From Clostridia bacterium (GTDB lineage Bacteria; Bacillota; Clostridia; Christensenellales; Borkfalkiaceae), in assembly GCA_017463145.1 (NCBI GenBank), contig JAFTPR010000002.1, positions 17,334 through 81,333 of the forward strand: a stretch of DNA of 64,000 bases. The letters run 5' to 3'. Below the pieces are notes generated by a model. The model was not told the origin of the DNA. It was given only the letters and a program-made list of their open reading frames with translations, and did not search any database. Position 1 is the first letter of the stretch. Every line of letters begins with the position of its first letter. Below, piece after piece: positions 15,810 through 64,000 of the stretch. The position numbers were made by a program, and so were the translations under genes.

Positions 15810-18212
15810 ATGGAAGAAATTATGGTAAACAACGAAACAAGAACGAACGTACTGCCTGTGATTGCGCTTCGCGGGAAAGTGGCTTTTCCGCGTACGACGG
15901 TAACGTTCGAGGTCGGCAGAGAAATGACGTTAAAAGCCGTGCAAAGAGCAACGGCAAGCGAGGACAGGCTTGTTCTTATTTGTACTCAACGGGAAACGGA
16001 AAAGAACGAGATAACCCCGCGGGATTTGTACGAGGTAGGTTGCGTAGCGCGCATTAAACAGGCTTCTCAAATGCCGGGAAGCGTTGTGCGGGTATCGTGC
16101 GAGGGATTGTATCGCGCCCGCGCCCGCTCTATTAACGATACGCAGGGATATTTCAGCGCCGTGTGCGACGAGATGTTCACCGTTTTTAGCGATCCAACGC
16201 TGGAAGAGGCGCATTTTAGAACGGCAAAAGCGCTTGTGAAGGACGTGTGCGCCGTAGACGGCAAGCTTGGTAAGGAAACGCTTGCTAAGATTGAGGGTTT
16301 TCAAGACGCCGAGTCGTATATCGACGCGGCAATGTCCGTTATGCGGGTGAAGTTGGAAATCAAGCAGCGTTGCTTGGAGGAAACGAGCCTTGTAGAGCGG
16401 TTAAAGCTGTTTGAGCGTTGCTTGAACGACGAATTGGAAATTTCCAAAATCGAGAAAAAAATCACTTCCGCCGTGCGCCTAAATATCGATAAATCGCAAA
16501 AGGACTACTTTCTTAGAGAACAGCTTAAAGCTATCCATACGGAGCTTGGCGACGACGGTAAGGAAGAGGACGAATACCGTGCGAAAATCGAGGAAAAAAA
16601 TCTCCCCGAGGAGCTGAAAGCAAAGTGTCTAAAAGAAATAGACAGAATGAGCAAAATGCAAACCTCCTCTCCCGAATACACCGTCGTAACTACGTATTTA
16701 GAACAGGTCCTCTCGCTTCCGTTCACGGAAGAAACCGTCGATACGCAGGAATTGGACGCTTGTATCGAGATTTTGGAAGAGGATCATTACGGCTTGGAAA
16801 AAATCAAGGAGCGTATCACCGAATACCTTGCCGTACTGAAATTGACGGGCGATATGAAAGCCCCTATTCTTTGTTTTGTCGGTCCTCCGGGTGTGGGTAA
16901 AACGAGTATTGCCAAATCTATTGCAAGAGCGTTGAACAGAAAATTTGTGCGTATGAGCCTGGGGGGTGTACGCGACGAAGCGGAAATCCGTGGGCATAGA
17001 CGTACCTATATCGGCGCAATGCCGGGACGGATTTTGTACGGTATGAAACAAGCGGGTACAATCAACCCCGTGTTCCTTTTGGACGAGATCGACAAGATGA
17101 GTATGGATATGCACGGCGACCCCGGCTCGGCTCTTTTGGAAGCGCTCGATCCCGAACAAAACGCAACGTTCAGGGATAGATATTTGGAAGCGCCGTATGA
17201 TTTGAGTAAGGTGCTGTTCGTCACGACGGCAAACTCCCTCGACACGATTCCCGCGCCCTTACGCGACAGAATGGAAATTATCGAGGTTTCGGGTTATACG
17301 CTTGAAGAAAAAACGGAAATTGCCAAACGGTATCTTTTGCCCAAACAGCTCAAAGCCAACGGCTTGACGGCGAAAAACGTCGAGATTGGCGATACGGCGT
17401 ACCGATTTATTATCGAAGGCTATACGCGGGAAGCGGGCGTTAGAACGTTGGAACGCACAATCGGTTCGGTATGTAGAAAAATAGCGGTGAAGCACGCGAA
17501 AAACGCGGCTACACGTAAGGTGAAACTCACCGAAAAGGAAGTGGAAAAACTGCTCGGCGCGCCCCGTTTCACGGTAGATCAAAAGGAATTGCAGGGCGAA
17601 GTCGGCGCGGTGGTCGGGCTTGCGTGGACGGCGGTCGGCGGGACGACGCTCACCGTTGAAGCAACGGCAATGAAAGGCAAAGGCGAAATCAAGCTGACGG
17701 GTAAGCTCGGTGACGTGATGAAGGAATCTGCCCAAGCCGCCCTTTCGTACATTCGTTCGCACGCGGAAGCGTACGGTATCGATACGGATAAATTTGCGGA
17801 AACGGATTTGCATATCCACGTACCCGAGGGCGCAACGCCCAAAGACGGGCCGAGCGCAGGCATTACGATTGCTTCGGCGATTCTCTCCGTTTTAACAGGG
17901 AAAAAAGCGCGTGGCGACGTGGCTATGACGGGCGAGATTACGTTGCGAGGCAAGGTATTGCCCATTGGCGGTTTGAAAGAAAAAGCGCTTGCCGCAAGGC
18001 GGGTTGGTATTAAAACGGTTATCATTCCCAAAGCCAACGAAAAGGATATCGAGGAGTTCCCGCAAGTATTGAAACAGGACGTGACGTTTGTTCCCGTTTC
18101 CGCTATCGACGAGGTGTTTGCAATCGTATTTCCGAAAATGAAAGAAAAGAAAGAAAGCGTAAAGCGCTTGCCCGTGACGCTTAGCGAGGCGCAAGATAGC
18201 GTTAGATGCTAA
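15810..18212 (+). CDS. lon: ATP-dependent protease Lon
   Basis: 800 aa. Walker A GPPGVGKTS. Protease active-site region PKDGPSAGITIA. Confidence 0.9.
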   Translation: MEEIMVNNETRTNVLPVIALRGKVAFPRTTVTFEVGREMTLKAVQRATASEDRLVLICTQRETEKNEITPRDLYEVGCVARIKQASQMPGSVVRVSCEGLYRARARSINDTQGYFSAVCDEMFTVFSDPTLEEAHFRTAKALVKDVCAVDGKLGKETLAKIEGFQDAESYIDAAMSVMRVKLEIKQRCLEETSLVERLKLFERCLNDELEISKIEKKITSAVRLNIDKSQKDYFLREQLKAIHTELGDDGKEEDEYRAKIEEKNLPEELKAKCLKEIDRMSKMQTSSPEYTVVTTYLEQVLSLPFTEETVDTQELDACIEILEEDHYGLEKIKERITEYLAVLKLTGDMKAPILCFVGPPGVGKTSIAKSIARALNRKFVRMSLGGVRDEAEIRGHRRTYIGAMPGRILYGMKQAGTINPVFLLDEIDKMSMDMHGDPGSALLEALDPEQNATFRDRYLEAPYDLSKVLFVTTANSLDTIPAPLRDRMEIIEVSGYTLEEKTEIAKRYLLPKQLKANGLTAKNVEIGDTAYRFIIEGYTREAGVRTLERTIGSVCRKIAVKHAKNAATRKVKLTEKEVEKLLGAPRFTVDQKELQGEVGAVVGLAWTAVGGTTLTVEATAMKGKGEIKLTGKLGDVMKESAQAALSYIRSHAEAYGIDTDKFAETDLHIHVPEGATPKDGPSAGITIASAILSVLTGKKARGDVAMTGEITLRGKVLPIGGLKEKALAARRVGIKTVIIPKANEKDIEEFPQVLKQDVTFVPVSAIDEVFAIVFPKMKEKKESVKRLPVTLSEAQDSVRC

Positions 18213-55393: not shown

Positions 55394-56647
55394 TTAGTCT
55401 TTTTTCAGAAGTTTCGGGGTTCTTTTCTTGCCTTTCCAAAGGAGGTAATAGATCCAAATCCCAATCAAGGGAAAGAGGGTTGCAACTAGCATACCTGCTT
55501 TCATTCCGATTTGTTCGGGAGAGAGTGCAAGGCTTGTAGAAAGGTTTGCGGCAAACGTACTTGCGGCTACCGTGTCCGTGATCACGCCGATAAGCTGCGG
55601 TCCGACGGATGCGCCGAGGTCGCCTCCTGCTGCCATCATTGCGTAGATAAATACGCCGCCGTCCGGTATGCGATCCGTTGAGGCGATTAACGTTCCTGGC
55701 CAAAGCATAGAAACGCAAAAGCCCGTCGCGGCGCAGGCAATTAAACCGATTACAGGTACGTTTATAAGCGCCGTCGTCAGATAGCAAATGCTTGCGCCGA
55801 TCGCGCCGAAGAAAAGGACTTTTCCCACGTCTTTGCCGTATTTGGCAAACAGCGTTCTGCCCAAGCCCAAAGTTAAGCCGAATAAGGCTACGCCGAAAAT
55901 GTCGCCCCATACTTTTTCAATGCCGAGCGCGCGTTCGAGATAGCCCGAGCTCCATTGCGCCATTGTACATTCGCTTGCACCGCCAAGGAATATGGCGAAC
56001 ACGCAGAGCCACAAGTCTTTTCTTTTAAGAAACGCAAGCGCGCCCGAAACCCGTTCGGGCGTTTCCATTTCGGGTATTTTCGCCCCTGCGAATAAAAGAC
56101 AAGCGGTGAGGGGGACGAGGGCAAAAAACAGGGTCAATATTTGCCATTTATCCGAACCGAAAGCAAGCAAAAATAACGTGCCGCACACCACGACGAACAC
56201 CACGCCCCACGCATAAATGGAATGGAGTTTGCTCATCTCCCGTTCGGGATTTTCCGCGGGAATGGCGGCAATCGTCGGAGAAATCAATACTTCCGAAAGC
56301 CCGCTGGAAGCGGAAAAAACGAATGTACCGAGCGCTAAACCGAGGTATACGAGCTTGGGAAACAGTATAGGCGCAAGAGCGAAAAGCACTAAGCCGAGCA
56401 CGGATAAAACGGGTGTAAATTTTACCGTTTTCGGGATATTGAATTTGTGGGAAAAGAAAGAAAAAATGAGGTCGATTATAAGTTGTGTACAGAAATTGAT
56501 AAGTACCAAAAGACCCAAAAGGGAATAGGAAATGCCGTATAAGGTTCTAAATGTGATAAAGAGCATAGGCGAAAGATTGCCCACAACGGACATAGATACG
56601 TTCGTGGCGTAGCAAGCGTATTTTACGCGTTGGAAAGTCTTATTCAT
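55394..56647 (-). CDS. MFS transporter
   Basis: Start MNKTFQRVKY at 56647. About 12 TM segments. Confidence 0.7.
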   Translation of the reverse strand: MNKTFQRVKYACYATNVSMSVVGNLSPMLFITFRTLYGISYSLLGLLVLINFCTQLIIDLIFSFFSHKFNIPKTVKFTPVLSVLGLVLFALAPILFPKLVYLGLALGTFVFSASSGLSEVLISPTIAAIPAENPEREMSKLHSIYAWGVVFVVVCGTLFLLAFGSDKWQILTLFFALVPLTACLLFAGAKIPEMETPERVSGALAFLKRKDLWLCVFAIFLGGASECTMAQWSSGYLERALGIEKVWGDIFGVALFGLTLGLGRTLFAKYGKDVGKVLFFGAIGASICYLTTALINVPVIGLIACAATGFCVSMLWPGTLIASTDRIPDGGVFIYAMMAAGGDLGASVGPQLIGVITDTVAASTFAANLSTSLALSPEQIGMKAGMLVATLFPLIGIWIYYLLWKGKKRTPKLLKKD

Positions 56648-56679
56648 AATAAAAACCAAGCCTTGAAAATATTGCAACC

Positions 56680-56708
56680 ATTATAGCATAACCGTCGAGA
56701 AATATCAA
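56680..56708 (-). promoter_or_regulatory. Promoter of the MFS/M20/ATP-grasp operon
   Basis: Minus strand: TTGATA (56708-56703), 17-nt spacer, TATAAT (56685-56680). Confidence 0.5.
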
Positions 56709-56865
56709 CGGAAAACCGATAAAAAACTTTAAATCTTTTATGCAAAATGTACGCTGAGGGTAAAAGGGTTTTTTATTTTTCCGCAAGTCAACGGATTTTT
56801 TATTGGATTAACATGTCAATCGGTGCTAAAAATGTGAAAATCACGACTTTCGCATAGAATATTTA

Positions 56866-56917
56866 TACAAAAACAAAAAGAAAACGGCATTTATGCAACT
56901 TTTCTTGCATAAATGCC
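56866..56917 (-). terminator. Strong intrinsic terminator (minus strand)
   Basis: Perfect 13-bp hairpin GGCATTTATGCAA / TTGCATAAATGCC. On the minus strand it is followed by GTTTTCTTTTTGTTTTT. Sits 6 nt after the tRNA-like ..CACCA end. Confidence 0.75.
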
Positions 56918-56923
56918 TTACGC

Positions 56924-56946
56924 TGGTGCGGTCGACAGGAATTGAA
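56924..56946 (-). other. tRNA 3'-end fragment (T-loop to CCA); putative att-site remnant
   Basis: The minus strand reads TTCAATT-CCTGT-CGACCGC-A-CCA, i.e. T-loop, 3' T-stem, 3' acceptor strand, discriminator and CCA. No matching 5' half could be folded upstream. Confidence 0.5.
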
Positions 56947-57320
56947 GCAGTTTCCACTTCGCTGAAAGCCTTTATTTATAAGGGATTTAGCCACTTGATC
57001 GCCAAAAACACGCCAATAATTTTAGGCTTTCGTGATAGGGAATTTTTAAGTAATTTTAAGGCATATTTTTGCCCGATTTTTGTGTTGTTTACAATCGACA
57101 GGTCAAGTTTTTTCGTTTATGTTAAATTTGTTATTCACCTCTCAAAAGTTGCCAAAAGTACGCCAAAACGTGAATCAAAAATTCGACGATCTTTCATATA
57201 AAAATTCTCATTGAAAAAAGGTTTAATTTACAACAAATTTCAGTCGACAGGTCATTTGCGCGTTTTTGACTTGTTCGCTTTTTTGATTTGATATGATAAG
57301 CAAAAATCATATCTTTTGAT

Positions 57321-57470
57321 TTTACAGGGACATTTGCAGGAACATTGTGACCTATTTACACCGACAAATACACCGTCATTTACTCCGACATACACCCGAC
57401 ATTTACACCCTCATTTTATAATTTACAGACTCGTTTAGAGGCACATTTACAGAGTCATTTTATGCTACAG
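57321..57470. repeat. Array of degenerate ~11-12-nt phased repeats (consensus approx. CGACATTTACAC)
   Basis: ATTTAC cores at 57355, 57378, 57401, 57421 and 57445, with intervening half-copies (ACAAATACACC, ACATACACCC, TCATTTTAT). Non-coding. Confidence 0.6.
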
Positions 57471-57554
57471 CATAATTTTGATAACTTATTTTTAGCGGTG
57501 TCATGCAATAAATTGTTTTGCCAATCCAAGGAAAAAAGCTATGAACTATCATAA

Positions 57555-57580
57555 AAGAAGAGACGGATTAGCCTCTTCTT
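57555..57580 (-). terminator. Possible terminator of the radical-SAM operon
   Basis: AAGAAGAG / CTCTTCTT hairpin. The T-tract on the minus strand is weak (TTTATGAT). Confidence 0.4.
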
Positions 57581-57635
57581 TCATAGCTGAACATATTATT
57601 TGTTTTTTATTTACCTTATCGAAAATTAATGGGTG

Positions 57636-59534
57636 TTAATTTTTGTCAACAGTGGCTTCGTTTCTTGTTATTTTATAATACCTTAATACTTCCTCGATTT
57701 CAGTATCACCATTTGTAGTATATTCGCCGTCTCTAAATTTGTTCTTTGCAATGATTTTTTTTGCTTCTTCCAATTTCTTTTCGGGTAATGCTTGGAATTT
57801 GCCCCACCATTCATTGGCTAAATCGCAATCATCTGTAGAATGGCTTTTATATCTGTCAGCAAGTCTCGCCCTTAAATTGGCATCATATTTTCGGCGATAA
57901 ATAATGAACGTTTCAGGCATCCAAAGAATTTTCATAAATTCATCAACATCACGTCCAAAAGCTTCTTCAAAAAATTCTGTACCTTTTCCGATTTTTCCTT
58001 TAGTGGAATTTAATACAGCTTGAACTGCACGTATAAATTTACGATTCCAATGTTTACCTATAAAATCTCTATTTTTGAAGAACTCAGGATCGTTGATAGG
58101 GTGATACTTCATAGGGAATGAGTAGATACTCGCGCCTAATTCATCGCACAAATCGACATTCATACGCAATCTATAATATAAGTGTTCAGGTTTGTCCTCA
58201 AAATTGTATAATAAATAATTTGAAAGATTTGTTATACCATTCCTAACTGCAATGCGGATAGAGTTTTCATAAATCTTTCTTAACTCCCAATGGTCGAATG
58301 CAATTCTAAGCGGGCGAATATTGATTTCCGATAATTTTCTCATATTTTCATCGGTAATCAACCGCGAATCTATACCCTGATTAAAATCAACTATACGCAT
58401 TTTTCGTCCAGCCTTATACGTTTTTTTGTATAATGGACGTACAAATTCATCAAGCTCTAAAATCGCCTCGCGTGTTGCCGTATAGTAATGTAAACAATGT
58501 TTTTCTTCCAAATGGGCATAGAATTGTATCTGTTCTTCTTCTGACAATTTAGAGCGTAGCTGTGTATAAATTTTGACAGCCTTTCTAACATACGCCCTTA
58601 CATTATAAGAGTCTCTTAAATTCTGAATAACAACATCATATTCATCGGGAGCAGAATAAGTCGCCCCTTTGGCAAAGCCACACGCTTTAATTTCATCTAT
58701 AATTTGCGCATAGCAACTTGAGGCTAATACATTATTATCCATAAGCATTAAATTACGTTGCTCGCCAAAACGTGTCTTCGCTATTTCCAACTGTTTTTTT
58801 AAACCAATATAATCGCAATATTGGGGTTCCAATTTTGGAACAGCACAAAATCTACATTTGTTTACACACCCACGCGTCATATACGCAAAATAAGCATTAT
58901 TAGTGGGATAAACATAATCGATTTCTTCTAAAATGGAATAATCTAAGGGCAACTCATCGATGATTAAATCATTGTCCTTATCAATATCCCCAGGATGATT
59001 TAATAGTCCTAAAAAGGGGTGAATGCCTGTTGCTTCGTAAACTTCATTAGGTAATAAAGTGGACATAATGCCGCCCACCATGACATCATCAATAGATTTA
59101 CACAACTGCTTCGCAAAGTTAATTGTTTCTATTGTGATATTCCAATAAAAGGTAAATAACGTCGTGATTCCTACTTTGTCAAAACGCGGCTTAGTAAAAT
59201 ACTCTTTTGCTACGTATTTTGCACGATATTCTTTGATTGCTTCAAAAATATATTCAGATTGAAAAACTTCGTCTTCCAAAATGGAAAATCTACCCACTTT
59301 TATAAATTCAAATAAGGTAGGGTAATATTCTTTCCAAAATATATTTGGCTCAATAATACTGAGATGATTTATTAAATCTTCGCAAATTAAATCAACCGCC
59401 AAAGATTTCATATCACCCTTATAGAAACGTACATCATCACCCACCATACGATAATATGTGGCAAGTTTCATTAAACCCATCGGGGGATATTTATTTTTAT
59501 AATTCGGCTCGATGAGCAATACTTTTCTATTCAT
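57636..59534 (-). CDS. Radical SAM enzyme with N-terminal B12-binding-like (Rossmann) domain
   Basis: CxxxCxxC at residues 223-230 (RGCVNKCRFCAVP; nt ~58845-58868). N-terminus KVLLIEPNYKNKYPPMGLMKLATYYRMVGDDVRFY resembles the B12-binding/radical-SAM class. 632 aa. Confidence 0.8.
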   Translation of the reverse strand: MNRKVLLIEPNYKNKYPPMGLMKLATYYRMVGDDVRFYKGDMKSLAVDLICEDLINHLSIIEPNIFWKEYYPTLFEFIKVGRFSILEDEVFQSEYIFEAIKEYRAKYVAKEYFTKPRFDKVGITTLFTFYWNITIETINFAKQLCKSIDDVMVGGIMSTLLPNEVYEATGIHPFLGLLNHPGDIDKDNDLIIDELPLDYSILEEIDYVYPTNNAYFAYMTRGCVNKCRFCAVPKLEPQYCDYIGLKKQLEIAKTRFGEQRNLMLMDNNVLASSCYAQIIDEIKACGFAKGATYSAPDEYDVVIQNLRDSYNVRAYVRKAVKIYTQLRSKLSEEEQIQFYAHLEEKHCLHYYTATREAILELDEFVRPLYKKTYKAGRKMRIVDFNQGIDSRLITDENMRKLSEINIRPLRIAFDHWELRKIYENSIRIAVRNGITNLSNYLLYNFEDKPEHLYYRLRMNVDLCDELGASIYSFPMKYHPINDPEFFKNRDFIGKHWNRKFIRAVQAVLNSTKGKIGKGTEFFEEAFGRDVDEFMKILWMPETFIIYRRKYDANLRARLADRYKSHSTDDCDLANEWWGKFQALPEKKLEEAKKIIAKNKFRDGEYTTNGDTEIEEVLRYYKITRNEATVDKN

Positions 59535-59538
59535 ACAA

Positions 59539-61098
59539 CTATTTTAAATCCTTTGTGATTTTATCTATAATTTGTTCGGCTATTTCTTTAGGTGCAATAT
59601 CACTAATAATAGTCATGATTTTTGAAACCAACTTTCTTTCAGCTTTTGTTAATTTTGAAAAACTTGCAGCCAAATACGAGTCTTTATTCTTTGTAGGAGT
59701 AGAGACGACTTCCACCTTGGTTGTTTGTTCTTCTACCTCATCAGCATTATATTGACGCTTAATACTTTTTTGAACCTCAGCTATTGGCGAATCTTCATCC
59801 ACCGTCTCGTATTTATCTAATTGCTTTTTTGCTTTTTCAGCCTTTTTACGCGATTCTTCAACGTCATGTTGCATCTTGGCGCGTTCCTCTTCACTAATGA
59901 ACCCACCAGTTTTTGATTTTGCATTAAAATCTTCTACTTTATCAACATATTCTTTTTGCGCCTTAATAGCATTTTTTATTCCGTTTGCAGAATAATAAAT
60001 TTTATATAAGGTTTCATGAAAATATCTTTTTAGAAGCGTTTCAAACTTCACGCGACATTCATTTTCGTTAAAATAGTCTCTTTGCGAGTTTGGAATCAAT
60101 CCCTCATCAACAGCAAAGACTTCGCCAACAAAATAATAATTACTGCGAGCTTCACGGAAAAGGTTTCGTTTTTGTAAAGTATCATCGTCTCCCAATTGAA
60201 TATTAGCACTTCTTAATCGAATGCCTCTCATCTCATTGATTTTGGGTATTTGCTTTTCAAACCGAGAAAGTCCAACCCACATCCAAGCAATCAGTTTGCC
60301 GTTTTCATCTTTAAAATTGTGAAACTCCAACTTGGAAATCTCATCATAATTTTTGATGTTAGAACCGCTTTCTTCTTTTAATTTAGTGGTATAATTTTTG
60401 AAAAGTTGTTCCCCGTTGACCAAGATTTTATATTCGTCAATAACATATCCGATTTTTTTGGCATGCTCGTAAATTTGATAATTTAAATAGAATTTATTGG
60501 TGTATGGAACAGGCGCAACAAAACTTAAATAGTCAACGACTTTGGTTTGGTCTAACAAATCAGAATGCGCTTGTCCTACATCAATTAGTTCTACATCAAA
60601 ATAATGTTTTTCTGCTTGTTCGGGTTTAGTGTCAAATTTAACAATTTCCGCCCATATCTCATCAATAGTGTATTTGATGGGAGAGGTAAGCATTTCACGC
60701 ATTTTTTTTGCGTCACAAGTCATTATAGAGGCAACATTTTCGCCTAAATAGGATGTCGTAAATTTTAAAACTTGACAATAGGCTAAGCCGCATAATCGTC
60801 CTATTCCTCGAAAGCCTTTGTTTTCGCCTCTCTTTTTATTACTGTTTGCAATATCGCCTAAATCACTTTGGAAATCTGCGGCTTTCACACCAGTAGCATT
60901 ATCATGAATGTTAATATAACGCTTTTTCGGGTCTATGTAAATTTCAACTTCGCCCTCGTCAGGGTTCAAGATTCCTTCTTTAATTGCTTTATCAATTTGG
61001 TCGCAAGCGTTTTGGATGTATTCACGATAACTCACTTTAGAGTCTAAATACATACCAGTTGTCAAGTTTTCTAAAATATTTTTTCCTATTGTAGCCAT
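59539..61098 (-). CDS. GHKL (Bergerat-fold; MORC/Hsp90-like, HATPase_c_3-type) ATPase with charged coiled-coil C-terminus
   Basis: N-box REYIQNACDQ (ExxxNAxD). G1-like IHDNATGV. G2-like GFRGIGRLCGL. K/E-rich helical tail. Confidence 0.7.
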   Translation of the reverse strand: MATIGKNILENLTTGMYLDSKVSYREYIQNACDQIDKAIKEGILNPDEGEVEIYIDPKKRYINIHDNATGVKAADFQSDLGDIANSNKKRGENKGFRGIGRLCGLAYCQVLKFTTSYLGENVASIMTCDAKKMREMLTSPIKYTIDEIWAEIVKFDTKPEQAEKHYFDVELIDVGQAHSDLLDQTKVVDYLSFVAPVPYTNKFYLNYQIYEHAKKIGYVIDEYKILVNGEQLFKNYTTKLKEESGSNIKNYDEISKLEFHNFKDENGKLIAWMWVGLSRFEKQIPKINEMRGIRLRSANIQLGDDDTLQKRNLFREARSNYYFVGEVFAVDEGLIPNSQRDYFNENECRVKFETLLKRYFHETLYKIYYSANGIKNAIKAQKEYVDKVEDFNAKSKTGGFISEEERAKMQHDVEESRKKAEKAKKQLDKYETVDEDSPIAEVQKSIKRQYNADEVEEQTTKVEVVSTPTKNKDSYLAASFSKLTKAERKLVSKIMTIISDIAPKEIAEQIIDKITKDLK

Positions 61099-61110
61099 AA
61101 TGGGGAATCC

Positions 61111-62814
61111 TTACTTAAATTGTTTATAAATAGGTTTCGGGAATTTAATACTCAATAACGAGCGGAATATAGGATTTTGAATAATGTATTCACCTTGATT
61201 CAAGCGCGTCATCATAGTTTTATAGACGTCTGGAATACTACGATAATCACTTTTCGTAATTTCAATAGAATTCGTTCGCCCATAAGCGTGAGTGGAACAG
61301 TTTCCTGTTACTCTATCGTGAATAGCACTTCTAAATTGTTCCGCCGCAAAGAGAACAACACCAAGAGAACGTCCACGTTCCGCCACATCTAAAACTTGCC
61401 GTAAAATCGGAGAATTCTTAGGTGCATCCTTTGAAGCATACTTGTTTAATTCATCAATAAAAATTACAATACGTGAGGGGGGATTAACATTGGCTTCCCC
61501 GTTATATTGTCCTAATTGCAAATCGTAAATTGTTCGTATAGCGTCACCGAATACGAATGCTTGTTTATCTTCAGATAACTTGGCAATATCAATCACATGA
61601 ACTTCATTCTTCTTAATATGCTTTAATGATTCTTCCAATCGGGTCTCGTTATCCTCAGGACAAACACGGTTTGCAAAAATTCTATTATCCGCGATGCTTT
61701 TATTGATAATACGATAAAACTTTCTCCAACTTGTAACAGCAATTTCTTTATCCGAAGAAGCTTTATCAGGGCTGCATTTTTTCTTAACGCACTCTAAAAA
61801 CTCCTGCCAAGTGGAAATTGTCCCAAAATCACCTTGTCCCGACATAATATATGTGATAATTGAGTCCATGGTTTGCGTGGAATCATCCACATTTGCAAAC
61901 ATCAAATCAAGATTTTCTTTGTCGTCCTCATAAATATATTTATACATTTTGCCCTTTTTCGTTTCCAGTTTCTCTTTGACTTCTTCTGGCGACAAATATG
62001 TATTCCAATGAGCAGTTCTTTCAATGGAGTATGGATAATAATACTGCACATTTTTAAAAGGTTCAGGGGTTAATCCAAGTGCTTCATATTGCTTAAATAA
62101 TGTTTCCTGTGCTTTTTCGGGGTTTTTGCTATCCGAGAACTCATTTAACTCATCAATAGCCAAAAGGTCTTTCCCTTTTACATTAAACAATACGAACGCA
62201 ACACTATCATCTTCATCCTCGTTGGTTAAATAACGGTCTTGAATTGCTTTTAACAAAAACATAGAGTAGGATGTTTTTGCTGCAAGACCTGATATACCAG
62301 AAATATTCAAATGTGCACCTTCGGGTCCAATAATGAATTTGGAATTTAACGATACAGGCAATGTTACTTTTTTATGTCCTTCCGTTCCTTCATACATTTC
62401 AAGATAACCACATACAAGAGGATTTTGAATACCATTTAACCCTAACGCATACTCTATCTCATCTGCAGTTGCCAACATAACCTTTGCATTGCTCTGTAAA
62501 GGAATATAAATATTTTTATCATTGCATGCCACTTTTGCAGTAACATAATTCATGCCAACGCGTAAAGTATTTGCTTCCACACCGACATCGCCAAAATCAC
62601 TGGATATGAAATTTGTTAAAAAGCTTGCCGCATCAGTGATATGCGCAATATCTTCTATTACGCCATAAGAATGGGAGCCATTAACGTGTTCTATCTTCAC
62701 CACATCAAAGGGATTTAAAATTAAATTAGATTTCGTCCAAAATGTAAACTTATCGATTGTAGTAGGGCATTTTTCTGTCGCTAAAACTCTACCAATTACT
62801 TTATTATCAGACAT
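61111..62814 (-). CDS. HerA/DUF87-like (FtsK-HerA superfamily) ATPase
   Basis: N-terminal barrel-like VIGRVLATE..FDVVKIEH..YGVIEDI. P-loop-like GPEGAHLNISGISGLAAKTS. Walker B RIVIFIDELNKYA. RGRSLGVVLFAAEQ segment. Confidence 0.6.
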   Translation of the reverse strand: MSDNKVIGRVLATEKCPTTIDKFTFWTKSNLILNPFDVVKIEHVNGSHSYGVIEDIAHITDAASFLTNFISSDFGDVGVEANTLRVGMNYVTAKVACNDKNIYIPLQSNAKVMLATADEIEYALGLNGIQNPLVCGYLEMYEGTEGHKKVTLPVSLNSKFIIGPEGAHLNISGISGLAAKTSYSMFLLKAIQDRYLTNEDEDDSVAFVLFNVKGKDLLAIDELNEFSDSKNPEKAQETLFKQYEALGLTPEPFKNVQYYYPYSIERTAHWNTYLSPEEVKEKLETKKGKMYKYIYEDDKENLDLMFANVDDSTQTMDSIITYIMSGQGDFGTISTWQEFLECVKKKCSPDKASSDKEIAVTSWRKFYRIINKSIADNRIFANRVCPEDNETRLEESLKHIKKNEVHVIDIAKLSEDKQAFVFGDAIRTIYDLQLGQYNGEANVNPPSRIVIFIDELNKYASKDAPKNSPILRQVLDVAERGRSLGVVLFAAEQFRSAIHDRVTGNCSTHAYGRTNSIEITKSDYRSIPDVYKTMMTRLNQGEYIIQNPIFRSLLSIKFPKPIYKQFK

Positions 62815-62825
62815 GTTTTTCCTCC

Positions 62826-63974
62826 TTAAAATAAGTGCAAAAACGTATTTGTGTTTATGTAGTTACTCTTTACAAAAGTTTCGGTTAAATATACGGGATA
62901 CAAATGATTTGCCCAACGCTTATCTGTACCATAACAGGTAGGATTTCGTTCATTAAGGATATTAGCGGAAATTAAATCAACCTCATCGCTTTCTATCCCA
63001 TATTTCATTTCTCTATCCATTAAAATTTTTTCAACTTTTACTACACCATCAAAAGGCGTATGGGTTTGCCGTTTGTCCCTTAGTCTGATATACCAAACCG
63101 CAAATTCCACATCACCAGAATAACTGTTTCTATAACGCGCAACAGGGGTACGATGATGTAAGGGGAGTTCAGCAATATAATTTGCATTAGGTTTGCCTGT
63201 ATGGTCTTTTATCGTTTCTGGGTTAAAGGATTTTGAAACGCCTATAACCCAACGATAATTGTTCTTTATTCTTTGTAGAGAACGTGGGTCTTCTCTCCCT
63301 GTTTGCATATACTCTAAAGAACCATCTTTCAATAGATAGCTGTATTGCCCCAACTTTTTATCTCTGACCAATTGTTCAACCATTTTCTTTTCACAATCAA
63401 TCATATAATCTTGGACTTTTGCAATTGCTAAATCTTCAAGTTTAACTCGGTCGGTTGCATTTTTTGATGTTTTGTATGTTAAAATCTCGGAGAATTCCAA
63501 CTGCAACCTTTGGAGTTCTTCACTCTGGTTTATTTTTTGGAGTTTTGACTTGAAATAGCCTTTATCCCACCCCTCAGGGTCGCTTTTATCAGGGAGAACC
63601 AAAACCAAGTCTCTATAAAAAAGCTCTTTCGACATAATTTTATCAACGCGTTTACAGCAACCAACTCCAACTTGCCCTGCAATAATCGGGAACACTTGAT
63701 TTCCATATGCCATATCATCGACTTTGTATACATGCCGTGATCCATCTAAAAAATACTTAAGGAGCGGTGTTTGTTCACTAATACGATCTGCTTCTTCTTT
63801 CAGAGGAATATATGTTTTATATTCAATAGTTTCACCTTGGTTTTTCCACTGTATGATTTTTTCATCGTTATCATAATCGATAGAAGGGATTCCAATGGAA
63901 TCAAAACTATACTTATAAGTTTGATAACTTTTCCCTTTGGTTTCCTTCGCTATGATTTCCATGATTTTAGGCAT
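62826..63974 (-). CDS. NurA-like nuclease
   Basis: FLDGS at residues 75-79, acidic helix (CEKKMVEQL) about 20 aa before LKDGSL at 215-220. This matches the D...E...D arrangement of NurA. RBS GGAGGA upstream at 63980-63990. Confidence 0.5.
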   Translation of the reverse strand: MPKIMEIIAKETKGKSYQTYKYSFDSIGIPSIDYDNDEKIIQWKNQGETIEYKTYIPLKEEADRISEQTPLLKYFLDGSRHVYKVDDMAYGNQVFPIIAGQVGVGCCKRVDKIMSKELFYRDLVLVLPDKSDPEGWDKGYFKSKLQKINQSEELQRLQLEFSEILTYKTSKNATDRVKLEDLAIAKVQDYMIDCEKKMVEQLVRDKKLGQYSYLLKDGSLEYMQTGREDPRSLQRIKNNYRWVIGVSKSFNPETIKDHTGKPNANYIAELPLHHRTPVARYRNSYSGDVEFAVWYIRLRDKRQTHTPFDGVVKVEKILMDREMKYGIESDEVDLISANILNERNPTCYGTDKRWANHLYPVYLTETFVKSNYINTNTFLHLF

Positions 63975-64000
63975 ATAGGTTCCTCCTTTTGAAATATCGT

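Follow-up and report, generated by a model that had tools for sequence, protein, structure and literature searches.

What is a radical S-adenosylmethionine (SAM) enzyme doing at the end of an operon whose other products resemble a nuclease and two ATPases? The question is raised by a stretch of DNA from a Clostridia bacterium of the Borkfalkiaceae (assembly GCA_017463145.1, contig JAFTPR010000002.1, forward-strand positions 17,334 to 81,333), all 64,000 nucleotides of which are here called the window, and specifically by four co-directional open reading frames (ORFs), A-B-C-D, which lie on its minus strand and occupy about 6.3 kb in total. These four genes are a mobile cassette that is inherited as a unit. 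Both the cassette and its core, the pairing of a divergent radical SAM enzyme with an Hsp90-like ATPase, are undescribed in the databases and literature that were searched.

All gene and domain coordinates given below refer to the minus strand of the window. The cassette begins with gene A (62826..63974, 382 residues), whose product is probably a NurA-like nuclease. Gene B (61111..62814, 567 residues) is assigned to the HerA-family P-loop translocases, and gene C (59539..61098, 519 residues) to the GHKL ATPases of Hsp90-like type, with a predicted C-terminal coiled coil; evolution has kept it as the partner of the radical SAM enzyme. Last comes gene D (57636..59534, 632 residues), the predicted divergent radical SAM enzyme itself, with an intact ORF that starts at an ATG. 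The ORFs are separated by 11 nucleotides (A/B), 12 nucleotides (B/C) and 4 nucleotides (C/D), with the letters at the last junction being TAG-TTGT-ATG and an AAGGA present upstream of the D start codon. An earlier note on this DNA had taken D for a radical SAM gene closing a tight nuclease/ATPase operon and had put its start 4 nucleotides from the GHKL stop; the ORF map, the fold and the cluster motif bear out the former, and the junction letters confirm the latter. Its ‘nuclease/ATPase’ description of the partners is refined here to a NurA-like protein, a clear HerA and a GHKL protein that is Hsp90-like.

How general is the arrangement? In a survey that took one genome per GTDB species, 80 loci were gathered (cited below, with others, by L numbers), and on every contig of sufficient length the genes follow one another as A-B-C-D, except in three degraded or interrupted copies (L035, L079 and L177). 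All four ORFs are intact in the 55 complete loci. The cassette occurs in at least six phyla, its hosts including Bacillota (Clostridia), Bacteroidota, Planctomycetota, Actinomycetota, Kiritimatiellia and Melainabacteria-like bacteria, together with other metagenome-assembled genomes. From locus to locus the four proteins rise and fall together in their identity to the window copies (r 0.92-0.97), and outside the four genes no flanking gene is common to more than 11 loci. A HerA-seeded search of IMG/VR gave 13 intact loci, all 13 with the four genes complete and with HerA identities as low as 37%, and one more locus that is visibly degraded; among the ‘viral’ contigs of that collection, those with a complete cassette may represent mobile elements or islands next to prophages and not phages. 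The family of D is larger still, with more than 7,184 matching proteins in the 90% cluster database, none informatively named, and 1,623 matching clusters in the 50% library; the radical SAM core is 72-77% identical across many species. This abundance of homologous proteins, with the four intact ORFs of the 55 complete loci, rules out a chance arrangement.

The three damaged copies differ from one another. In L177 (2788-3366) the GHKL gene is truncated to 192 residues and the radical SAM gene is missing, in L079 (7773-9801) HerA and GHKL are deleted so that the NurA-like gene abuts radical SAM residues 302-627, and in L035 (5160-9990) about 1.5 kb has been inserted between HerA and GHKL. Directly downstream of the radical SAM gene some loci have a protein family of about 255 residues (cluster 9 in 8 loci, cluster 17 in 4 loci; for example L007:11917-12705 and L028:11915-12679), in which no domain was found.

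Is D really a radical SAM enzyme? The signature of the superfamily is present as CVNKCRFC at residues 223-230 (58845..58868), the sole CxxxCxxC in the protein and the one that the earlier note had picked out at C223/C227/C230. Conservation was measured over 46 homologues, with identity down to 32%: C227 and C230 never vary, C223 is retained by at least 90%, and no other cysteine is conserved among them, so no auxiliary cluster is expected. Preceding the motif is a predicted Rossmann-like domain (residues ~1-175; 59010..59534), delimited by secondary structure, the architecture of the Foldseek matches and entropy, and within it a variable helical insert (residues 41-115; 59190-59414) that is missing from short homologues. 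The radical SAM barrel (residues ~205-480; 58095..58922), delimited by motif conservation, secondary structure and entropy, has family-specific invariants (D266-N267, D383-x-N385-Q386-G387, S438-N439-Y440, R455 and S472-F473-P474) and a second variable helical insert, residues 296-375. The helical region that follows (57639..58094) is of two kinds. Residues ~480-550 carry invariant W496, G513, G527, P540 and R547 and are found in short homologues also, so this part of what had been seen as an unrecognised long C-terminal extension belongs to the conserved core; residues 551-632 form a variable helical tail. Short members of the family have ~380-560 residues, and what the window protein adds to them is 41-115, 296-375 and 551-632, its most variable segments. 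A fused DndB/ParB domain was sought in the long variants (650-824 residues) and discarded, there being no similarity and the extra residues being mostly C-terminal.

An AlphaFold2 model built from the 46-sequence alignment has a pLDDT of 93.9 and a pTM of 0.91, and its comparison with the PDB by Foldseek places MgmA first (E 2e-8), followed by TsrM, MiaB, AprD4 and RimO. These best matches (E 2e-8 to 1e-5, probability 1.0) are distant, with TM-scores of 0.3-0.5 and identities of 9-13%, and all of them have an N-terminal Rossmann domain followed by a radical SAM barrel. Among the top 15 PDB matches (probability 0.99-1.0) there are 14 solved radical SAM structures and one integrative model (9a6d). 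In the viral structure library BFVD the only matches are unnamed phage ‘Radical SAM/COG1032’ proteins. Sequence libraries were far less forthcoming. Pfam Radical_SAM (PF04055) gives 15.5 bits against a cut-off of 29.5 (E 0.02), which is below the gathering threshold because the sequence is too divergent for the model; neither the single protein nor the family profile has a significant sequence match in the PDB; there are zero matches in NCBIfam or PADLOC; and the only good library match is PHROG 9298, ‘radical SAM domain protein’ (E 5e-35). Weak Pfam matches to TerL_nuclease and DctP were treated as noise. Taken from model and motif together, D is a real, very divergent radical SAM enzyme that has a single cluster and, at its N-terminus, a Rossmann domain; cleavage of SAM is predicted for it.

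To which group of radical SAM enzymes would it belong? The structural search that the earlier note had proposed has now been run, and its nearest matches, all distant, are the B12-dependent MgmA and TsrM, with MiaB and AprD4 also represented. The suggestion that the N-domain is B12-binding-like is thus upheld at the level of fold; the Pfam B12-binding match is weak and sub-threshold (17.1 bits against a cut-off of 32.1, E 0.005). MiaB and AprD4 share the architecture, and neither is known to use cobalamin. By its architecture D is possibly a class B-like, cobalamin-using enzyme, a candidate only. Assignment to the methylthiotransferases (MiaB, RimO, MtaB) was rejected, D being without the auxiliary cysteines of the N-domain. 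Viperin gave no PADLOC match at E <=0.1 and does not appear among the top 50 Foldseek matches in either the PDB or BFVD; QueE and the Dpd proteins gave no PADLOC or NCBIfam match, QueE also being outside the top 50 PDB Foldseek matches, as is spore photoproduct lyase (SPL). By PADLOC, NCBIfam and Foldseek, then, D falls outside both the viperin and the 7-deazaguanine groups, the defence-related roles which the earlier note had named as established for radical SAM enzymes, and what emerged was no close relative among characterised metabolic radical SAM enzymes with metabolic neighbours.

Of its partners B is the clearest. The B family profile matches Deinococcus radiodurans HerA (7f6d_B) at E 3.7e-50, and the Walker A (GISGLAAKTS, 173-182) and Walker B (FIDELNKY, 452-459) motifs are conserved, with most positions invariant; PADLOC matches to mad8 (5e-9) and HerA (1e-4) are weak. 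B is, judged on sequence, a HerA protein homologous to hexameric translocases. In A, four residues stay the same throughout 18 homologues with identity as low as 33%: D77 (FLDGSR), E195, D217 (KDGSL) and K248 (GVSK). Pfam NurA matches two of the 18 family members, with a best E of 8e-5, Pfam gives nothing for the window protein, the family profile against D. radiodurans NurA (7f6d_H) gives E 0.12, and the gene is always directly upstream of HerA. Together these point to a NurA-like nuclease as the probable identity of A.

C matches Pfam HATPase_c_3 above cut-off (E 2.8e-8), and the ATP-binding residues of its N-box and G-boxes are invariant (E26, N30, D33, D66, G70, G95, G98 and G100). Its profile matches the N-domains of HtpG and TRAP1 (E 6e-11). 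Its AlphaFold2 model, made from a less diverse alignment and of moderate confidence (pLDDT 72), matches the N and middle domains of TRAP1, Hsp90 and HtpG over 400-480 columns (E 4e-11, TM ~0.4), and has long helices at 347-396 and 403-431. Because of this alignment through both N and middle domains C is seen as Hsp90-like and not MORC- or MutL-like, and a GHKL protein of MORC/MutL type was rejected since Foldseek ranks Hsp90/TRAP1 first. C is accordingly described as a GHKL ATPase with a modelled Hsp90 N and middle-domain fold and an intact predicted ATP site. In conservation the four rank HerA > radical SAM > NurA > GHKL, B having the lowest mean entropy (0.83) and C (1.79) being the fastest-evolving. 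Scans with Pfam, PADLOC and NCBIfam found no signal-binding domain on HerA, NurA or GHKL.

Distant relatives of D provide the best pointers to what it may act upon. On plasmids of Rhizobium, Mesorhizobium, Agrobacterium, Bradyrhizobium, Roseomonas and Novosphingobium there is a 540-residue homologue (36-43% identity), flanked on one side by a DGQHR/DndB-family protein (PF14072, E 2e-11; PADLOC DpdB, E 1.5e-17) and on the other by a full-length homologue of C (28% identity, E 2e-61). The neighbourhood also includes a ParB-N protein, a PIN_8 nuclease accompanied by a second C paralogue (27% identity, E 2e-39), and a helicase for which DpdE, ZorD and DrmD are the matches (E 3.5e-33 to 6e-40). Other metagenomic or viral contigs have ParB-N with radical SAM and GHKL, GHKL with radical SAM alone, or a long radical SAM gene and then GHKL. 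The radical SAM-GHKL core recurs with three different sets of nuclease or DNA-binding partners, and comparison of these architectures implies that the radical SAM enzyme and its Hsp90-like companion are the constant element and the DNA-binding and nuclease partners the exchangeable one. Real phage genomes have shorter, solitary homologues of D within replication, recombination and packaging modules. In one phage contig (L103:7164-12773) a 510-residue solitary homologue stands between a UDG/3'-5' exonuclease gene and a PolA polymerase-domain gene, thus inside a split DNA polymerase I locus that a beta-clamp-like gene precedes; in other phages the neighbours are YqaJ, RecA, D5-like primase or TerL, with DNA methyltransferases nearby. 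Neighbours of the radical SAM gene bind, move, copy or cut DNA in all the architectures examined except bare radical SAM-GHKL pairs and L085, L090 and L094, whose neighbours are without family assignment.

The plasmid genes form a larger cluster in Rhizobium (L081:2939-14728) and Novosphingobium (L082:3129-13486), made up of 338- and 139-residue proteins, the DpdE/ZorD-like helicase, ParB-N, the DpdB/DndB-like protein, the radical SAM enzyme (37-43% identical in these two genera) and GHKL, with the PIN_8 nuclease and GHKL paralogue on the opposite side; L082 has in addition a 769-residue DGQHR-domain protein. What PADLOC recognises in these two loci is the helicase, the DpdB-like protein and, weakly, PDC-M38A-like ParB proteins. 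On a viral contig (L093:9905-12615) a 493-residue member of the D family is immediately followed by a second, canonical radical SAM protein (411 residues; PF04055 E 7e-13, Radical_SAM_N2).

The earlier note had offered three possible products for D, a nucleic-acid mark, a nucleotide or a matured partner protein, and the context leans toward action on nucleic acid, on the basis of the DpdB/DndB-like and ParB-N neighbours, the DpdE-like helicase and the homologues in phage replication modules. The reading that we favour, at a probability of roughly 0.4, is that D with the help of C would mark DNA, that HerA–NurA would degrade DNA which is unmarked, and that the orphan copies in phages would serve evasion. 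It is preferred because of the DNA-centred neighbours and because adjacency to a DpdB-like protein is as seen in Dpd clusters, where the DNA-modifying DpdA has DpdB as its DNA-binding partner, a protein believed to bind DNA and to help in recognising the target (PMC5699537). Radical SAM chemistry on DNA does have precedents, in SPL and in gp53 of phage M6 (PMC8989533). From DNA-centred context to DNA substrate, and from there to protective self-mark, each step is one that we infer.

How might such a restriction-like module work? C, as a dimeric ATP-driven clamp, would help or position D, which would use a 5'-deoxyadenosyl radical, possibly with cobalamin, to alter DNA chemically, the most likely product being a mark attached covalently to the DNA of the host itself. 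HerA–NurA would then thread and degrade DNA without the mark, for example that of a phage or plasmid. The radical SAM enzyme and Hsp90-like protein would form a constant core for modification and discrimination to which a swappable nuclease module is attached, NurA–HerA here and, in alphaproteobacterial plasmids, the PIN nuclease with the second GHKL and the DpdE-like helicase. Phages would carry the lone radical SAM gene in their replication modules in a manner comparable to orphan methyltransferases. In the fully specified version, which would amount to a new class of immunity dependent on modification, a clamp-positioned radical SAM enzyme would write a radical-installed self-mark of a kind not seen before, for instance a C-methyl group, an adduct or an altered backbone, possibly with the aid of cobalamin; HerA–NurA would destroy DNA lacking it and phage orphans would counterfeit it. 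This version is put forward tentatively, as the more doubtful proposition.

Several considerations tell against this proposal. The A-B-C-D cassette has no DpdB/ParB-like protein and no recognisable DNA-specificity domain, and the chemistry suggested for it is deduced wholly from gene neighbourhood. The radical SAM core is very conserved, unlike classical modification enzymes with their diversifying specificity. D is not basic: its isoelectric point is 6.6 overall and reaches 9.4 only for residues 376-550, which is uninformative as a hint of DNA binding. Nor does the fold give a pointer to DNA, since the substrates of the structural neighbours are proteins, tRNA, an amino acid and a sugar. Modular sensor-effector systems would predict the same pattern of constant core and variable nuclease, and siting in phage replication modules would suit a DNA repair or nucleotide-pool enzyme equally.

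Viperin is a defence radical SAM enzyme that makes a nucleotide analogue. Might D similarly turn a nucleotide or some other metabolite into an antiviral analogue or signal, with the Hsp90-like ATPase sensing infection and HerA–NurA being the effector that is activated? Small-molecule action has also been proposed for OpnA of Ophion, a gammaproteobacterial system of radical SAM, PHP and PRTase proteins (OpnABC; bioRxiv 10.1101/2025.09.30.679545), so that defence radical SAM enzymes do, or are thought to, work like that; constancy of a core with swapping of effectors is typical of sensor or signal-effector systems, and a phage replication module could equally be home to a nucleotide-modifying enzyme. 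We nevertheless regard such a route as unlikely, given that D lacks a viperin match in PADLOC and among the top 50 Foldseek matches in PDB and BFVD, that in none of HerA, NurA and GHKL did the scans pick up a signal-binding domain, and that its DpdB/DndB-like and ParB-N neighbours are DNA-binding partners and not nucleotide-pool enzymes. Improbable too is a role in DNA repair or maintenance, ranked next, with D reversing or processing a lesion in the manner of SPL, the GHKL protein being a MutL-like matchmaker, HerA–NurA resecting ends, and mobile elements and phages carrying the module for the upkeep of their own DNA. The closest solved HerA and NurA are those of the D. radiodurans HerA–NurA complex (PDB 7f6d), which we take to function in DNA repair, and phage homologues of D do lie beside RecA, YqaJ, UDG and polymerase genes; SPL is itself a DNA-repair radical SAM enzyme (PMC8989533). 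However, SPL is outside the top 50 structural matches of D, the GHKL protein is Hsp90-like and not MutL-like, the cassette is patchy and horizontally transferred in low-GC islands near defence candidates and toxin-antitoxin genes, and the DpdB- and DpdE-like partners of its relatives belong to modification-restriction systems.

Proteins of the Hsp90 family act on client proteins, and the best structural match of D, MgmA, modifies a protein. It is therefore conceivable that D modifies or activates HerA, NurA or GHKL, or that C chaperones the maturation of D, with HerA–NurA the only component to touch DNA. The pairing of the radical SAM and GHKL genes, tight here with its 4-nucleotide gap and recurrent elsewhere, would suit such a dependence. 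Solitary phage homologues of D have neither GHKL nor the two nuclease partners, and since the plasmid loci use an unrelated PIN nuclease with its own GHKL there is no common protein substrate besides GHKL, and we rate a protein-directed role as quite improbable. Machines of the HerA–NurA type are generally thought to load at DNA ends, and in Pfam, PADLOC and NCBIfam scans no other endonuclease was found in the cassette. Could D supply the ends, by abstracting a deoxyribose hydrogen and so breaking invader DNA held by the clamp, HerA–NurA then degrading it from the breaks? The context is DNA-centred throughout; yet NurA also has endonuclease activity of its own, phage-encoded solitary copies in replication modules would be left unexplained, and a precedent for a radical SAM nuclease did not turn up in the literature, where no search was aimed at one. 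Such a DNA-damaging effector is the least probable of the alternatives and decidedly doubtful.

Setting the preferred restriction-like module beside known systems, Dpd is the most instructive comparison. Dpd combines a modifying enzyme, a ParB-like DNA-binding partner and helicase/nuclease restriction genes (PMC5699537), and on conjugative plasmids the distant radical SAM relatives directly follow a DpdB/DndB-family protein near a DpdE-like SNF2 helicase (E 3.5e-33). Both systems are patchy and horizontally transferred. The modifier here would be a radical SAM enzyme whereas that of Dpd is the TGT-like DpdA, with D matching no Dpd or Que model, and the window cassette has NurA–HerA, no DpdB-like gene and an Hsp90-like partner without Dpd counterpart. 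Dnd differs from the cassette in gene content. The pairing of a HerA-family ATPase with a nuclease encoded beside it is shared with SIR2–HerA, DUF4297–HerA and HerA–NurA, the nuclease here having NurA motifs. SIR2–HerA and DUF4297–HerA are two-gene defence systems with a SIR2 or Cap4-like effector, neither described as including a radical SAM enzyme or Hsp90-like ATPase. In the intact surveyed loci of the present cassette HerA–NurA is never without the radical SAM-GHKL pair.

As for radical SAM enzymes, D resembles those of class B (MgmA, TsrM, Mmp10), MiaB/RimO and AprD4 in having a Rossmann-like N-domain before the CxxxCxxC barrel, and differs in lacking auxiliary-cluster cysteines, in its two family-specific helical inserts and C-terminal tail, and in its DNA-centred context. 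Viperins and Ophion OpnA are likewise radical SAM enzymes, as D would be, inside an anti-phage or candidate anti-phage operon; no sequence or structural match between viperin and D was found, and Ophion, with its PHP and PRTase, shares no partner genes with the NurA-like, HerA and GHKL set. SPL and M6 gp53 exemplify radical SAM chemistry used on DNA, including that of phage genomes (PMC8989533), but are SPL-like, without a Rossmann N-domain, and so fall in a different structural group. In PADLOC-DB v2.0.0 A, C and D have no match, B has only the weak ones to mad8 and HerA, and no system covers the cassette. The literature, recent discovery papers included and subscription journals thinly covered, yielded no description of a radical SAM enzyme with HerA, NurA or an Hsp90-like ATPase. 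We place the cassette among the mobile nuclease/ATPase conflict systems, as one that carries a modification-like module.

Its mobility is evident on its own contig (ENA ERZ27256818, 91 kb), which was used to read past the end of the window (L165/L167). The cassette block has a GC content of 0.34-0.38, compared with 0.48-0.52 in neighbouring DNA, and is part of a low-GC island (0.35 against 0.50) that spans 56700-64000 and runs on beyond the window end. The upstream part of the island, outside the window, has an integrase (260 residues), a 131-residue ORF, a Mob_Pre relaxase and a DUF234/ATPase_2 gene, and then comes the cassette; the limits are a SpoVT-like gene on one side and an MFS transporter gene (55394-56677) on the other. 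From the integrase, Mob_Pre and this layout the cassette is taken to travel as cargo on a small integrative mobilizable element. The DUF234 ATPase next to the cassette matches the PADLOC candidate PDC-S27 (E 2e-66). Elsewhere, 150 non-redundant flank proteins from other loci include a mobility group (Mob_Pre, TnpV, resolvase, NikA, MobL, IS200) and a defence-type group (AbiEi/AbiEii, PDC-S01/DUF4143, SoFic, SLFN_AlbA_2), the remainder being products of ordinary housekeeping genes. The suspicion that the operon is a mobile conflict or defence-like module is well matched by the conserved unit, variable flanks, mobilizable island and PDC-S27 neighbour. Scans of the window for tRNA genes and Rfam families came up empty, and hence no tRNA-type integration site was found in it.

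Some features lie between the radical SAM stop codon and the MFS gene. About 50 nucleotides past the stop is a 12-bp hairpin (57551..57584, minus strand; inverted repeat I15, 92% complementary), a candidate operon terminator, an assignment that is weak since the terminator scan did not call it. The sole terminator-like site called in the region is a perfect 13-bp inverted repeat with a 6-nucleotide loop and, on the minus strand, a T-run (56886-56917), which from its position may mark the border of island and chromosome. Within the non-coding stretch of ~960 nucleotides there are, at 57321-57460, at least four copies of a 15-mer like TTTACAGnnnCATTT, with two pairs spaced 12 nucleotides apart, and also overlapping repeats of 16-21 nucleotides; these may be candidate arm-type, att or oriT sites at the element end.

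What would follow if the favoured restriction-like reading is true? Even if the idea of a DNA mark is wrong, the strict co-inheritance of a radical SAM enzyme with HerA–NurA is not explained by current knowledge, and so compact a cassette of four genes gives clear predictions for knockouts. If that idea is verified, the route to DNA modification would be categorically new. Radical chemistry would then join methylation, phosphorothioation and 7-deazaguanine in the marking of self DNA by bacteria, with the first epigenetic self-mark in bacterial chromosomes to be written by a radical SAM enzyme and the first defined role in DNA immunity for a bacterial Hsp90 paralogue. A testable function would be gained by more than 7,000 unnamed proteins and by the Hsp90-like ATPase with which they are always paired, and a DNA modification common in the anaerobes of gut and rumen and in their phages would come into view.

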